Positions 38,082 to 43,117 of a stretch of 64,000 nt of DNA are shown here, one piece after another. This DNA comes from a virus (taxonomy: Duplodnaviria; Heunggongvirae; Uroviricota; Caudoviricetes): the IMG/VR virus record IMGVR_UViG_3300047160_006104, positions 29,865-93,864 of that record; one strand, written 5' to 3'. Numbering within the stretch: the stretch's first letter is position 1; each line of letters begins with the position of its first letter. Below the pieces are notes generated by a model. That model was not told the origin of the DNA. It was given only the letters and a program-made list of their open reading frames with translations, and made no database searches. The position numbers and the translations under genes are program-made.

Positions 38082-38465
38082 CTAATCCGGCCACTGCGCC
38101 CACCACGCATTCCTTTGCAGGTCGAAAACACCGATCTGATACACGATGCGCCCGCTGGTCGTGTCGAAGATCAGCAGCGCCCCGTAGTAGCAGTTGTTGC
38201 CCCGCAGCGCGATGAATCCCGCCTGCTGGCAGCACCCGGCGGCCGGGCACGGTTTGAACGGCTGCCATTTCACCGTCACGCCGGGATGAACCAGCTCAGG
38301 ATGGCGGATGATCCGGTTGAGCGCCTCGCTGGTGACCAGAATCCGCTGGTCGGGGCCGGTGACGATGTACAGTTCGCCGGGCCACTTTGTGGTGGTCACG
38401 TCGATGCCGACCTCGAAAGCCCCCGCCACCGCGCTAAACGCGCCTTGGTCACGCATCCTCGACAC
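38082..38465 (-). CDS. hypothetical protein
   Basis: 127-aa ORF, last gene of minus-strand block. Confidence 0.4.
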   Translation of the reverse strand: MSRMRDQGAFSAVAGAFEVGIDVTTTKWPGELYIVTGPDQRILVTSEALNRIIRHPELVHPGVTVKWQPFKPCPAAGCCQQAGFIALRGNNCYYGALLIFDTTSGRIVYQIGVFDLQRNAWWAQWPD

Positions 38466-38471
38466 CCGGGA

Positions 38472-38831
38472 TTAGGGCTTTGATGGGAACACGCCACGGG
38501 GCGCGGGGCAGCCATGGCCGTAATCGACCAGCCACATGGCCAGAGACAACGTGCCCAGCACGCAGCCCAGCGCGACCAACGCCCACAGCGCAAAGACGAA
38601 GCGTTTGCGCCACTTCAACATTTCAGAGTCGGTTAACTTAATGTCGCCGTCAATGTCAGGCTGGGCAGAAATCTGGTCGGTGTGGTCCATGCCTTTGAAC
38701 ATGGGGGTGAAGTGGTGGTTGACCTTGTCTACCTGCTGCTGGGGCAGTTGGGTGGAGTCCATCGGCTTTTCCACCAGCGGGATCACGTCGACGGTGGTGG
38801 TGTCGTCGTGAATTTTGGAGTGTCTGCCCAT
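38472..38831 (-). CDS. membrane protein (C-terminal TM)
   Basis: 'FVFALWALVALGCVLGTLSLAMWLV'. Start overlaps upstream stop. Confidence 0.45.
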   Translation of the reverse strand: MGRHSKIHDDTTTVDVIPLVEKPMDSTQLPQQQVDKVNHHFTPMFKGMDHTDQISAQPDIDGDIKLTDSEMLKWRKRFVFALWALVALGCVLGTLSLAMWLVDYGHGCPAPRGVFPSKP

Positions 38832-39139
38832 CAGGCCGCAGCCGCCAATTCCTCTTTCCACTTGGCGATCTCAGCGGTCACCTCGTCTTTGCGGTCGCGG
38901 GCCGCGTCCAATTCCGCGATTGCCTCATCCAACACTTCCTGACCACCGCGGACGGCGTCGGCGGCTTGGGCTTGCAGGTCCGGCATGTTATCCACGGTGG
39001 TTTTCAGTTCGAGCGCGGCGCGGAAAATTTTGCGGGTGTTGATGCGGAAAATGTCGAGGTCTTCGTCGAGGATCAGTTGTTGCTGCGCGTCAGCAGTGAG
39101 AGCAATTTCGCGGCGGATATGCTGTGTGTGTCTGTCCAT
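38831..39139 (-). CDS. hypothetical helical protein (MDRHTQH...)
   Basis: Leaderless ATG 6 nt after TATAGT with TGCCAGC box. Confidence 0.45.
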   Translation of the reverse strand: MDRHTQHIRREIALTADAQQQLILDEDLDIFRINTRKIFRAALELKTTVDNMPDLQAQAADAVRGGQEVLDEAIAELDAARDRKDEVTAEIAKWKEELAAAA

Positions 39140-39168
39140 CCCCCCACTATATAACACCCGGCTGGCAT

Positions 39169-39300
39169 TCATTCGGTGTGGTCCTGTGATTCACGCAGCA
39201 CCGCTTCGAGGTCTTTGATGCGGCCCTCCAATCCTTTGAGCGCCCAAATTATCCCGGCCATACCGGTGAGCAGAATGGCGTCCATCGCATTGTTGAACAT
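39169..39300 (-). CDS. 43-aa membrane peptide (candidate immunity/holin-like)
   Basis: 'MFNNAMDAILLTGMAGIIWALKGLEGRIKDLEAVLRESQDHTE'. RBS AAGGA. Immediately downstream of WXG/Gly-zipper gene. Confidence 0.35.
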   Translation of the reverse strand: MFNNAMDAILLTGMAGIIWALKGLEGRIKDLEAVLRESQDHTE

Positions 39301-39305
39301 GGCTT

Positions 39306-40729: not shown

Positions 40730-41046
40730 GGGTGTCTCCAGTCGGTTTCTGCTAGCCGTACCTCAACGGCGAGCAGGTCGGCGAGTTTGTCTTTCAGTTC
40801 GACGCGTTCCACGATCCGCCCGGCGCATCGGGTGATGGTCTCGATGATGGCGGTGGTGTCGCACTGCGCGATCGACGCCGACAACGCCGCCGACGATATC
40901 TTCTCTGAGGCCACGACTCCGGCCGTGGTCCCCGCTGCGAGTGCTCGGGGCGCGGTGTCTTTGAGGACCACCCGGACTTCGGCGGCATCCAGCAGCACCA
41001 GCCACTGCGCACCGGGCATGGACTCCGGTATCGGTAGCGCGGCCAT
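40726..41046 (-). CDS. hypothetical protein
   Basis: 106 aa, coupled. Confidence 0.45.
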   Translation of the reverse strand: MAALPIPESMPGAQWLVLLDAAEVRVVLKDTAPRALAAGTTAGVVASEKISSAALSASIAQCDTTAIIETITRCAGRIVERVELKDKLADLLAVEVRLAETDWRHP

Positions 41047-41315
41047 CAGTCAGGCCACCTCGCTTCGAAATAGCCCAGGTGGTCAACTTTGCCGGTGAGC
41101 CGCCACACCTCGCTGGTGGACAGGTCTTTGACGATCACCCCAGCGAAGCAACCGTGCCAGTGGGTGGCGAGGTAAACCCCATCGTCCACGGGGCATCGTG
41201 ACGTTGACAGGTCGATCACCCAACCAGCCAGCGGCGGACCGGGGTTGCGGATGAACCGCGGCGGGAAATACACCACGGACTTATCCGCCGTGCCGCGTCT
41301 AAACACCAGGTTCAT
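41046..41315 (-). CDS. hypothetical protein
   Basis: 89 aa, coupled. Confidence 0.45.
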   Translation of the reverse strand: MNLVFRRGTADKSVVYFPPRFIRNPGPPLAGWVIDLSTSRCPVDDGVYLATHWHGCFAGVIVKDLSTSEVWRLTGKVDHLGYFEARWPD

Positions 41316-42544
41316 CAGAAGATCAGCTTCGCGACTTTAGGGATGGGCAGGCTGCGGGGCCGTTCATGTTCAGGCATCCCCAAAGACCCGCGCATGCCCG
41401 CCGGGTACACACCCGGACCACCCGACTGGCCCGGCATCGCGGCGGCGGGGATCATCGACCGGCCCGGCACCGCGACCGCCGTATCCGCAGACGCTTCGGT
41501 GGAGGTCGATGCCAGCGGCGCGGCGATCACCTTGGAGGGTTTGACCGACTCGGCCCACGCCGCCGGCACCGACAACCGCACCCCGTTACCGGGCAGCACC
41601 GCGCTGCGCCCTATGCTGGCCAGCGGGGTGGGCATCGAACCGAAGCCGGTGCCCACCCCCGGCACTGAACTCAACGTGTTGAGCGAGCTGCTGATCCCGC
41701 CCAGTCCAGTGCCAAGCCCATTGGTGAGTGCACCCATCCCCATCAGCGGCGCCAGGAACGACTGAAACCCGCTCAGGCTGGACAGCGGCGACGCCGCGGA
41801 TCCGAGTGAGCCGGGTGATCCGAGACTGCCTAGCATGCCGGGAATGCTGGACGCCATCTGCGGGGCCATGCCCGCCATCGACGCCGCGCTGCCCATCCCG
41901 GTCGGCATGCCCGCTAACTGTCCGCTGGCACCTGAGACTTGAGACCCGGCCTGCCCCGCGGACTGGCCCGCGGCCTGAGCCACGGCTGCGGCGTCGGCGG
42001 CGGGACCGGCCGGGTCGGCATCGGGGATCGGCGGCACAAACGGCACCATCCCCCCGGTGATCGCACTCAACTCACCCGCATACGCGGTCATTGTGGAAGC
42101 ATCGGTCGCCCAGTAGGTCGAGTATTCGGCCTCGTTCGCCGCAATGGCCGCGCTGTTCACCCCAAGGAAATTCGTCGCCACCAGCGTCGCCAATTCGGCG
42201 CGGTTCTCCGCGATCACTGCGGGATGAATGACTGCAGCATGTGCCGTCTCGAACGCGGTCGCCGTACCCATCGCAGCCAACGCATGTTCTTCAGCCTGCG
42301 CCGCAGTGGCGGTCATCCACGCCACATACGGCAACGCCGCCGAAAGCATCGTCATACTCGACGGCCCCAGCCAAGGGCCAGCCGTTAACGCACCGAGCAC
42401 CGCGTCGAAGGAAGCGGCTGAAACCCCAAGATCTGCCGCAAGGCTGGTCCATGCCGCTGCGGATGCCATGAGACTGCCGCTGCCCACGCCCCCATGCACC
42501 AGTCCACTGGTCACCTCCGGTGGCCAAGCCGCGTAGATGCTCAC
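41315..42544 (-). CDS. PPE family protein
   Basis: N-terminal ~180 aa matches PPE domain incl. 'AAWPPEV', 'PYVAWM', 'AIAANEAEY..W..DA'. Gly/Ser/Met-rich C-terminal repeats. GTG start with GGAGCGG RBS. Confidence 0.75.
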   Translation of the reverse strand: MSIYAAWPPEVTSGLVHGGVGSGSLMASAAAWTSLAADLGVSAASFDAVLGALTAGPWLGPSSMTMLSAALPYVAWMTATAAQAEEHALAAMGTATAFETAHAAVIHPAVIAENRAELATLVATNFLGVNSAAIAANEAEYSTYWATDASTMTAYAGELSAITGGMVPFVPPIPDADPAGPAADAAAVAQAAGQSAGQAGSQVSGASGQLAGMPTGMGSAASMAGMAPQMASSIPGMLGSLGSPGSLGSAASPLSSLSGFQSFLAPLMGMGALTNGLGTGLGGISSSLNTLSSVPGVGTGFGSMPTPLASIGRSAVLPGNGVRLSVPAAWAESVKPSKVIAAPLASTSTEASADTAVAVPGRSMIPAAAMPGQSGGPGVYPAGMRGSLGMPEHERPRSLPIPKVAKLIF

Positions 42545-42723
42545 GTCGCCCGCTCCATCCTTTCTTTGATTTCGTCGCCGCAGCGCCAGCACAGCCGGAA
42601 GCGGAAGGTCAATCCGCGCAACAGGCCATCTGCCATGCCGATCTGCGCGTATGCCTTGGGTTCGTTGTAACACCAGCGGTGACACCGCGCGCACCACAAC
42701 GACCGTGTAAAAGAAATGATCAT
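42541..42723 (-). CDS. zinc-ribbon small protein between PE and PPE
   Basis: 'WCARCHRWC ... CWRCGDE'. Confidence 0.4.
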   Translation of the reverse strand: MIISFTRSLWCARCHRWCYNEPKAYAQIGMADGLLRGLTFRFRLCWRCGDEIKERMERAT

Positions 42724-42733
42724 CGGCTCACCA

Positions 42734-43030
42734 TCAGAGCATGGTGGCCATGTTGGCAACCTCACAGCCCGCATACGACGCGGCGGCGGCACCGATGTTG
42801 GTCACGAACATAGCGTGAAACACGGCGCCCATCTGCGCGAACGCCTGATAGTCGGCGGAATGCGCCAGGTGCATGGCTGCGGCCAGGATGGAGGCCGGCT
42901 CGGGTGCGGGCGGTATGACGGAGGTGGTGGGGATCGCCGCACCAGCGTTGACACCTTCGACCTGGGCGCCGAGCGCGGCGAGCGTGCCGGAGGCCCCGGC
43001 GATAGCGGGTGAGGCTGCTTGCACGAACAT
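42734..43030 (-). CDS. PE family protein
   Basis: 98 aa. 'AIPTTSVIPPAPEPASILAAAMHLAHSADYQAFAQMGAVFHAMFVTNIGAAAASYAGCEVAN' = PE domain with YxxxE. Start preceded by GGATTGGAGCAGACAC. Confidence 0.75.
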   Translation of the reverse strand: MFVQAASPAIAGASGTLAALGAQVEGVNAGAAIPTTSVIPPAPEPASILAAAMHLAHSADYQAFAQMGAVFHAMFVTNIGAAAASYAGCEVANMATML

Positions 43031-43117
43031 GTGTCTGCTCCAATCCTTTTACCAGCGTGTGACCCAAATCATATGGCACCTGGCTGGCATTGTGAAGTCA
43101 TGGCTGTAATTTACCGG

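Follow-up and report, generated by a model that had tools for sequence, protein, structure and literature searches.

The stretch of DNA analyzed here, hereafter the window, comprises 64,000 nucleotides (nt) of a virus of the class Caudoviricetes (positions 29,865 to 93,864 of the IMG/VR record IMGVR_UViG_3300047160_006104). On its minus strand, positions 38082-43030 form an uninterrupted run of co-oriented open reading frames (ORFs), in which the G+C content at third codon positions (GC3) is 0.69-0.84, as in real genes. This island begins with genes for a PE and a PPE protein, members of families that have so far been reported only from mycobacterial chromosomes and plasmids, and continues with genes for an EsxB-like protein, a toxin-like protein and a small membrane peptide. 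We confirm that PE and PPE genes are present in a phage, and the island extends the known phage cassettes of ESX cargo to these two families. Its features, given from the upstream end and with protein lengths in amino acids (aa), are as follows:

43068-43096, minus strand: candidate promoter, sigma-70-like (TTCACA-17 nt-TATGAT), within the 87-nt gap that precedes the PE gene
42734-43030, minus strand: PE protein, 98 aa, consisting of the PE domain only (Pfam PF00934); first gene of the island
42541-42723, minus strand: 60-aa ORF with a CxxC...CxxC pattern, between the PE and PPE genes; GC3 0.75
41315-42544, minus strand: PPE protein, 409 aa, with a GTG start at 42544 (Pfam PF00823)
41046-41315, minus strand: 89-aa protein; GC3 0.77
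40726-41046, minus strand: 106-aa conserved island protein
40145-40729, minus strand: EsxB (CFP-10)-like protein, 194 aa, comprising a helix, a W41-P-S turn, a second helix, Y79xxxE83 and a tail of about 100 aa rich in Q, G and M
39306-40148, minus strand: toxin-like protein, 280 aa, comprising a PPE/WXG-like N-domain (residues 1-165), a Pro-rich linker and a C-terminal, Gly-rich module of about 55 aa with two Cys (the C-module)
39169-39300, minus strand: single-pass membrane peptide (MFNNAMDAILLTGMAGIIWALKG...), 43 aa, with one hydrophobic segment
38831-39172, minus strand: charged protein of 113 aa, lineage-specific and probably a coiled coil; start overlapping the 43-aa gene's end
38472-38861, minus strand: 129-aa protein with one C-terminal transmembrane (TM) segment (residues ~88-112), lineage-specific
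38082-38465, minus strand: Cys-rich protein of 127 aa with a WPD end, encoded by the final gene of the block; GC3 0.84

At least six more phage-like metagenome contigs carry an island with the same components (PE, PPE and proteins of about 105, 190 and 300 aa), and in them the genes corresponding to the 106-, 194- and 280-aa proteins were tied to those of the window by BLASTP. The gene content of the related loci, with plain numbers standing for protein lengths, is as follows:

L006/L007 (a 143.6-kilobase (kb) JGI contig and an independent Logan assembly): PE, PPE, a small membrane protein, 105, 192 and 336 aa, and a 35-aa membrane peptide
L008: PE, PPE, 86, 96, 95, 182 and 321 aa; Band_7 later
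L009/L010: 195 aa, PE, 92 aa, PPE, further genes, a canonical WXG100, 119, 123 and 347 aa
L011: PE, PPE, further genes, a 267-aa GmrSD_C fusion, 186 aa and 291 aa
L013: WhiB, PE, PPE, 95, 103, 175, 58, 430 and 53 aa
L014: Lsr2, two WXG100, PE, PPE, 122, 107, 191, 96 and 98 aa, a 354-aa GmrSD_C fusion, 454 and 49 aa
A 15-kb JGI contig (gene calls only): PE, PPE, 53 aa, Band_7 and a GmrSD_C protein

The L006 island shares its orientation with a long array of surrounding genes, among them WhiB, SprT-like, DUF932-like and LysB-like ones. [quoted passage not shown]

The PE and PPE domains named in a first-pass annotation of the window, which would have been refuted by their absence, were recovered by Pfam hidden Markov model (HMM) searches far above the curated cut-offs. 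The PE protein matches PF00934 along the entire profile (positions 1-91 of 91), scoring 58.2 bits where the cut-off is 22 (E=1e-15), and is 31-50% identical to the PE proteins of L006, L008, L009, L011, L013 and L014. Its C-terminus carries the YxxxE motif as Y86-A-G-C-E90, with both the Y and the E invariant among five phage PE sequences. The literal Pro-Glu does not occur near positions 8-9 of the window protein, which reads P8-A9 instead (MFVQAASPAIAG); the motif that gave the family its name is degenerate in many PE family members, the PE protein of L011 has PPE at that N-terminal place, and the HMM match of the window protein is unaffected by P8-A9. The PE gene sits 190 nt upstream of the PPE gene on the same strand. 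The sigma-70-like site, located 38 nt upstream of the PE start, matches at 10 of 12 positions and is the sole such site in the 36-46 kb region, which makes it a suggestive candidate for the promoter by position only.

The PPE protein matches PF00823 at 175.4 bits (cut-off 26, E=1.2e-51), with residues 4-161 aligned to profile positions 2-159 of 165. The literal WPPEV motif that had been read from the sequence lies at residues 7-11 (W7-P8-P9-E10-V11) and is accompanied by a WxG turn (W58-L-G60) and by an SVP-type motif, L-S-V-P-A-A-W, at residues 325-331. The PPE-SVP HMM (PF12484) scores 15.6 bits, below its cut-off of 23, and the pattern L-S-V-P-x-x-W is found in seven of the eight phage-context PPEs; WxG is present in all eight, and the PPE motif in most of them, one having I-P-E. 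Two other gene models were rejected. The extension in a 460-aa ORF starting at 42697 has a GC3 of 0.55, compared with 0.77 in the body of the gene, and the public JGI call of 346 aa starts 63 codons too late, because the alignment to the profile begins at residue 4 of the 409-aa protein (profile position 2). The JGI start would truncate the PPE domain and would thus lead automated annotation to under-detect it.

The closest relatives of the PPE protein are 43-54% identical over 96-99% of its length and every one of them is metagenomic, whereas the nearest named PPEs, from M. interjectum and the Mycobacterium avium complex, match in the N-domain only, at 51-53% identity. When 121 PPE N-domains were placed in a neighbour-joining tree, the eight phage-context PPEs all grouped in one clade of 17 sequences, which holds no member from a named genome; crude as it is, the tree favours a long stay in phages over a recent acquisition from a host. 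The SVP-type features of the PPE hint at a host that may possess an ESX-5-like system.

The stop codon of the 60-aa ORF overlaps the PPE start codon (GTGA), and the same gene was called independently in JGI contig L002, which is another sample's assembly. The first-pass annotation had placed a zinc-ribbon gene between PE and PPE: the ORF with its paired CxxC motifs is indeed there, but it has no Pfam, PHROG or NCBIfam match, and zinc ribbon remains a plausible guess. Because PE and PPE abut in L006 and L008, from which the 60-aa ORF is absent, we regard it as lineage-specific.

The toxin-like 280-aa protein belongs, by its N-terminal part, to a large family. An exhaustive HMMER search returned 297 representative clusters at E<1e-3, with residues 2-190 in common; the members range from about 90 to 560 aa in length and have unrelated C-termini. 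A Pfam scan of 90 members yielded weak PPE matches (12 members) as well as WXG100_2, WXG100, EspB_PPE and T7SS_signal in the N-parts, and GH-E and HNH nucleases, GmrSD_C, Amidase_6, NlpC/P60 and Abhydrolase_8 in the C-parts. Since weak PPE/WXG matches at one end are combined with toxin domains at the other, the N-part is best read as the T7SS targeting domain of a polymorphic-toxin family. The two motifs that the first-pass annotation had noted in this protein, a W-x-G turn and YxxxE, are borne out: W44-x-G46 and Y103-x3-E107 are conserved in three close orthologues, and an AlphaFold model built on the family alignment, with a predicted local distance difference test (pLDDT) score of 93-98 for residues 1-160, shows helices at 12-40, 47-100 and 126-163 and puts W44-x-G46 in the first turn, the loop between helices 1 and 2, and Y103-x3-E107 just past helix 2. 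PPE4, PPE41 and PPE15 are the best, weak Foldseek matches of this model in the PDB (E=0.065, TM 0.36). In the wider family, the Y is often F (consensus G-F-x-V-G-E-D), and the "YxxxE" of the 280-aa protein may be a family motif rather than a canonical signal.

The C-module is Gly/Ala-rich and hydrophobic, with two invariant Cys 26 residues apart and a fixed end, and can be written as GC-x25-GC-x2-G...W-x-[ND]-N-x3-G-x-G. It recurs in L006, L008, L013 and L014 and in about 10 more representatives, and we propose that it may act on membranes. The gene for the 43-aa peptide, missed in the first-pass annotation, is preceded by an AAGGA Shine-Dalgarno sequence, starts 5 nt past the stop codon of the 280-aa gene and was called independently in ENA contig L015. 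A gene for a membrane peptide of 35-53 aa is coupled to the 3' side of the C-module toxin-like gene in five of five loci, by the overlap TGATG in L006, L013 and L014 and by a GTG start 4 nt past the stop in L008; three of the five peptides share "TM-(R/K)AL-x-G/S...LE" and two do not. A layout of this kind would be expected if a toxin acting on membranes were encoded with its immunity peptide; that these genes encode such a toxin and its 43-aa immunity peptide is, in our estimate, an evenly balanced proposition.

The gene for the 194-aa protein overlaps the start of the 280-aa gene (40145-40148). A gene of the same type is directly upstream of the toxin-like gene in L006 and L008 as well, a short gap separates the two in L011, and one to three genes stand between them in L013 and L014. 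The helical protein with a YxxxE motif that had been noted downstream of PE/PPE is this one. Its first ~90 residues are conserved; W41, P42 and Y79 are invariant in six orthologues, and position 83 is E in four of them and D in the other two. Identity to the orthologues of L006 and L008 is 47-50%, with more relatives in L009, L011, L013 and L014. EsxB-type WXG100 chains account for four of the five top PDB matches of a profile of the N-region (4i0x_B MAB_3113, 3fav_A, 6j19_B and 1wa8_A), and in these alignments W41 falls on the WxG tryptophan and YxxxE is in register with MAB_3113. The protein has no Pfam (WXG100 PF06013) or NCBIfam match, and its turn, W-P-S, is without the G of WxG; we call it EsxB-like rather than a WXG100 protein. 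In related contigs (L011, 5207-6010; L014, 8835-9899), GmrSD_C/HNH nuclease domains are joined to N-domains of the 194-aa type as well as of the 280-aa type. Because a 194-type N-domain is nuclease-fused in L011, it too appears to serve as a targeting domain, and, given such fusions, a single island can hold at least two different ESX-type toxins.

The 106-aa protein has orthologues in L006, L008, L009, L013 and L014. This family is encoded directly upstream of the EsxB-like gene in five of six loci and upstream of the toxin-like gene in L009. A six-member profile gave no Pfam or PDB match, the single protein gave no PHROG or NCBIfam match, and a single-sequence AlphaFold model (pLDDT 53) was unusable; going by gene position, we would guess at an adaptor or chaperone. 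Taken together, the conservation of the motifs, their structural position and the HMM scores place the finding well beyond chance, whereas the short motifs alone are at chance level.

Canonical WXG100 genes of the EsxA/EsxB-like kind were also observed in two of the related contigs (L014, 4670-5262; L009, 7046-7330). The WXG100 pair of L014 lies directly upstream of PE/PPE, an arrangement equivalent to the esxB-esxA-PE-PPE core of an ESX locus without the ecc genes.

The window has a G+C content of 60-67%, which is even across the island region. At its start are minor tail genes (PHROG E=3e-86); one minor tail protein is 49% identical to its counterparts in the Mycobacterium abscessus prophage prophiGD43A-5 and the M. 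smegmatis phage Bipper, and Mycobacterium phages make up 423 of its 443 phage matches. The tail genes are followed by genes for a methyltransferase, RecE, DUF3631, RecT and Band_7, an epimerase/glycosyltransferase block, the island and a tRNA-Arg, past which come LysA, an HNH homing endonuclease, a cutinase-like LysB, Lsr2, DUF932 and Ku. Because phage genes flank the island on both sides, we conclude that it is mycobacteriophage DNA. Window positions 41861-43493 are 100% identical in five short contigs (four from ENA, one from JGI), and an identical 280-aa gene is present on one further ENA contig, L015; these six short contigs derive from at least five other samples. Misassembly of host chromosomal DNA into the contig, which the first-pass annotation had named as a finding that would overturn it, is not what is seen, in view of the flanking phage genes, the identical independent contigs and the gene order recurring elsewhere. 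The source is an uncultivated large mycobacteriophage lineage, with the JGI contig recorded at 113,757 bp. A megablast search with the block and with window positions 1-25000 against 50,697 phage records found no nucleotide-level relative. No integrase, repressor or attachment (att) site was seen within the 64-kb window, and no ESX machinery (Ecc, MycP, EspG) among the window ORFs scanned.

Neither the PE, the PPE, the 194-aa nor the 280-aa protein has a meaningful tblastn match in the same 50,697 phage records, no PHROG family exists for PE or PPE, and full-text literature searches returned no report of phage PE/PPE; across these records, families and publications, the view that a phage PE/PPE module had gone undescribed is upheld. 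Dedrick 2021 (PMC8092301) does not mention PPE, and Abad 2023 (PMC10654092) uses PE25/PPE41 as a structural analogy only. A word-indexed protein search returned only the 280-aa protein itself and nothing for the N-domain of the 194-aa protein. Searches of IMG/VR viral contigs with PPE and of public genome and metagenome contigs gave no relative, a weak negative, as they used short degenerate patterns and the window's own contig was not recovered either. The accompanying claim that PE/PPE and WXG proteins are limited to mycobacteria does not hold for WXG100 proteins, which occur outside mycobacteria, and T7SS polymorphic toxins of the WXG type have been known in Actinobacteria since 2012 (PMC3482391). 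ESX-secreted proteins of mycobacterial prophages have already been published as PT-Imm/PEST cassettes (PMC8092301, PMC10654092), and PE/PPE genes on ESX plasmids are also known (PMC8190616). Phage-borne ESX cargo itself is thus published, and the present island is an extension of it: what is new is the PE/PPE part, its linkage to a T7SS toxin-type gene, the toxin module and the peptide-sized candidate immunity gene.

From the PE and PPE families, the phage context, the synteny and the homology of the toxin N-domain, we infer a scheme that includes export, heterodimer formation, toxicity, immunity and a helper role. In general outline, we think it rather probable that the block is a phage island of ESX substrates, in which a PEST-like toxin set is joined by a canonical PE/PPE pair and all are exported by the ESX system of the host. 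The island would encode two substrate pairs of like architecture, each with a bipartite T7SS signal, WxG on one partner and YxxxD/E on the other. The first pair would be a PE/PPE heterodimer, to which PE would contribute YxxxE and the PPE, perhaps of the SVP type, the WxG; in the second, the 194-aa EsxB-like partner would provide YxxxE, and the 280-aa protein its PPE/WXG-like targeting domain. The 280-aa protein would attack membranes through its C-module, the 43-aa peptide would be the cognate immunity protein, and the 106-aa protein is a candidate adaptor. Because a scan of window ORFs yielded no ecc, mycP or espG gene, it is economical to suppose that a host ESX system, together with its EspG chaperone, would export all substrates of the island.

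The crossing of the mycomembrane by T7SS substrates is a long-standing open question. The PE/PPE pair might insert into this membrane and help the toxin pair to reach or cross it, a role we propose because every contig with a member of the PPE clade also has a toxin gene a few kb downstream, and which we put forward tentatively, as a possibility on the doubtful side. As analogies, PPE68 is required for the secretion of other ESX-1 substrates (PMC9765416), and EsxE/EsxF would play a comparable helper part for CpnT (cited in PMC10654092). A reading of the PE/PPE pair as a portable translocon of the mycomembrane, or as an insertion aid, through which the co-encoded EsxB-like/toxin pair would cross or enter that membrane once PE/PPE had been exported by the host ESX system, seems to us unlikely; if true, the island would be a minimal self-contained module of substrate plus outer-membrane step, moved by phages between mycobacteria, and a cassette of ~4 kb would make the mycomembrane step directly testable.

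Several observations weigh against parts of this scheme. What supports the helper role of PE/PPE is gene linkage and analogy alone. The EsxB-type PDB matches of the 194-aa profile are sub-significant (E=0.14-0.49), and an hhalign comparison of the 194-aa N-domain with the phage PE alignment gave a probability of just 3%, so that a diverged PE was rejected as its identity. The C-module, which the first-pass annotation had described as toxin-like, matches no known toxin family in Pfam, PHROG or NCBIfam and is modelled at low confidence; it is also conserved, not polymorphic, among the closest phage orthologues. The five downstream peptides, only three of which are alike, may not be one immunity family. 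Finally, the sigma-70-like site is no better than chance, shuffled sequences giving 1.7 such sites per region.

The PEST/PT-Imm cassettes of M. abscessus-chelonae prophages (PMC8092301, PMC10654092) resemble the island in the gene order of WXG100-like partner, toxin (toxin-like in the island) and small downstream gene, which encodes immunity in the cassettes and is a candidate for it in the island, in an N-terminal WXG/PPE-like targeting domain of the toxin or toxin-like protein, and in being carried by phages apparently without secretion machinery. These cassettes sit by the attachment junction of integrated prophages, are expressed in lysogens, become toxic once the immunity gene is removed, and have been proposed to be exported via the host ESX (PMC8092301, PMC10654092); the heterodimers of PEST1 and PEST2 were modelled as similar to PE25/PPE41 (PMC10654092). 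The island, by contrast, includes a canonical PE/PPE pair and the conserved 106-aa protein, which PEST cassettes lack. Its partner protein is 194 aa long with W-P-S in place of WxG, its C-module is new and very small, and its candidate immunity protein is a membrane peptide of 35-53 aa. The 194- and 280-aa proteins have no tblastn match to any deposited phage or prophage, and the contigs with the island come from environmental metagenomes, whereas 1,062 of the 1,063 published PEST prophages are from the M. abscessus clade.

With chromosomal and plasmid PE/PPE pairs such as PE25/PPE41, PE8/PPE15 and PE35/PPE68, the island shares complete domains, adjacent co-oriented genes, the YxxxE of PE, and the WxG and SVP-type motif of PPE. 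It differs from them in being encoded by a phage, with no ecc, mycP or espG found nearby, in the separate clade formed by the phage PPEs, which are at most 53% identical to named PPEs and in the N-domain only, and, in the lineage of the window, in the 60-aa Cys-rich ORF between PE and PPE. TspA/TsaI-type T7SSb toxins of Firmicutes combine an LXG-type helical N-domain, a hydrophobic Gly-rich C-part and a membrane immunity protein, to which the candidate immunity peptide of the island would correspond; they belong to another phylum and another secretion subtype, have no known sequence relationship to the island and are not known to be phage-borne. CpnT of M. tuberculosis, an ESX-dependent toxin (as cited in PMC10654092), resembles the 280-aa protein in its N-terminal helical secretion domain, in the small helical partners encoded upstream (EsxE/EsxF), which are thought to aid envelope crossing, and in a nearby immunity gene, for which the island has a candidate. 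CpnT is much larger and has an NAD-glycohydrolase (TNT) C-domain and a soluble immunity factor; the island has a Gly/Cys segment of ~55 aa as its toxin-like module and a PE/PPE pair as its candidate helper. Small helical putative ESX substrates are also encoded by cultured M. smegmatis phages, namely Sbash gp35-36, Che9c gp35-36 and Dori gp88-89 (PMC10654092). None of these is a PE/PPE protein or a complete cassette, and none shows tblastn similarity to the island; one uncharacterised Sbash protein gave a weak structural match to the model of the 280-aa protein (probability 0.87, 72 residues).

Other functions can be imagined for the island, beginning with nutrient uptake, for which the toxin-like genes would be irrelevant: a PE/PPE small-molecule channel in the mycomembrane would feed the infected or lysogenised cell. 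Chromosomal PE/PPE pairs are said to be uptake channels in M. tuberculosis, where work by Wang et al. in Science in 2020 reportedly found them to mediate the uptake of Mg2+, phosphate and carbon sources. The phage PPE is full-length and its SVP-type C-terminal region is kept across the phage clade, and there are other accessory genes around it (glycosyltransferases, Band_7), as might be expected of such a role. Nevertheless, uptake leaves unexplained why a T7SS toxin gene is so strictly linked to PE/PPE (8 of 8 phage contigs), and nothing points to any substrate; we consider it improbable.

The orientation of the island on the minus strand brings defence to mind, since accessory genes opposed to the flanking transcription are often defence genes in mycobacteriophages (PMC8092301). 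Exported proteins could block the adsorption or DNA entry of rivals, for instance by surface-exposed PE/PPE masking receptors, or the toxin could act in abortive infection, and the PEST authors name viral defence among possible roles (PMC10654092). The opposed orientation does not extend to L006, however, where the island is co-oriented with its neighbours, LysB included, and a toxin that is exported by a T7SS and paired with a membrane immunity peptide would be more in keeping with a weapon directed outward. Superinfection exclusion or other defence thus appears quite improbable to us. A part in lysis, in which exported membrane-active proteins would weaken the mycomembrane late in infection in cooperation with LysB, would suit the hydrophobic, Gly-rich C-module and the distances involved, LysA and LysB lying within 7-10 kb in the window and the L006 island 4-5 kb upstream of a LysB-like esterase on the same strand. 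We judge it very improbable all the same: a dedicated, coupled immunity-like peptide would make little sense for lysis, nuclease and other inter-bacterial toxin domains predominate in the N-domain family, and in the window the island is on the strand opposite to the lysis genes. The notion that host or plasmid DNA was misjoined to a phage, or that the contig is a plasmid, could appeal to the otherwise chromosomal and ESX-plasmid distribution of PE/PPE (PMC8190616) and to a relative of the 280-aa N-domain, 33% identical, on the ESX plasmid pTHAF192_a, but it is scarcely credible and refuted for practical purposes by the tail genes upstream and lysis genes downstream at even G+C content, by independent assemblies identical over part of the block, and by the same island among phage-type genes in at least six contigs from different samples.

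The remaining genes of the block are less widely shared. The 89-aa protein has no Pfam, PHROG or NCBIfam match and no homologue in the related loci, and small, unrelated membrane proteins take its place in L006, L008, L009 and L013. The three distal genes (38082-39172) are not conserved in the related loci. The 113-aa protein has no significant match in Pfam, PHROG or NCBIfam and no homologue in those loci; the 129-aa protein, with a Kyte-Doolittle peak of 2.26 at residue 89, has a sub-threshold Pfam match only and no PHROG or NCBIfam match; and the 127-aa protein matches nothing in Pfam, PHROG or NCBIfam. The 89- and 127-aa proteins, neither with homologues in the related loci, share an end of the form ...(R/Q)WPD after a Cys-containing, beta-like stretch and may be remote paralogues. 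A pairwise BLASTP comparison gave E=0.034 at the C-terminus and neither protein matched the C-termini of the toxin family, and both paralogy and a role as orphan toxin modules were dropped.

Elsewhere in the window, the phage encodes its own Lsr2 (56102-56722, minus strand), Ku (60509-61411, minus strand) and a RecE/RecT pair (15018-15923 and 22725-23729, both plus strand), a set that recalls large temperate mycobacteriophages. The lysis cassette is split by an HNH/NUMOD4 homing endonuclease gene (51101-51892, plus strand) between LysA (49573-51024) and LysB (51889-52707). The tRNA-Arg (anticodon CCG; 44831-44909, plus strand) has phage genes on either side; this rules it out as an attachment or integration site and identifies it as a phage-encoded tRNA. 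The minor tail genes are followed by an ORF of 1843 aa (3075-8606, plus strand) that lacks a Pfam match and has a faint PHROG match, presumably a giant tail or host-recognition protein. Two tandem paralogues (36672-37481 and about 37478-38065, plus strand) run convergently toward the end of the island and encode secreted, Cys-containing, Pro-rich proteins with a signal peptide and the motif C-x-YPGVG...C-x-FPTEINGSHW; a homologue adjoins LysB in L006 (17992-18579; BLASTP E=4e-17).

PE and PPE proteins are a hallmark of mycobacteria and matter in virulence, nutrient uptake and secretion, and their spread is attributed to duplication together with ESX loci, both chromosomal and plasmid-borne. 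A distinct and conserved phage PPE clade would make phages a third vehicle for these families. If the island is indeed a set of ESX substrates exported by the host, phages would be using the type VII systems of their hosts for several kinds of cargo, and PEST-like systems would be widened past the M. abscessus clade to environmental mycobacteria. The linkage of PE/PPE, toxin and peptide would also offer a compact system for studying the role of PE/PPE in the export of other substrates and the action of the Gly/Cys module.

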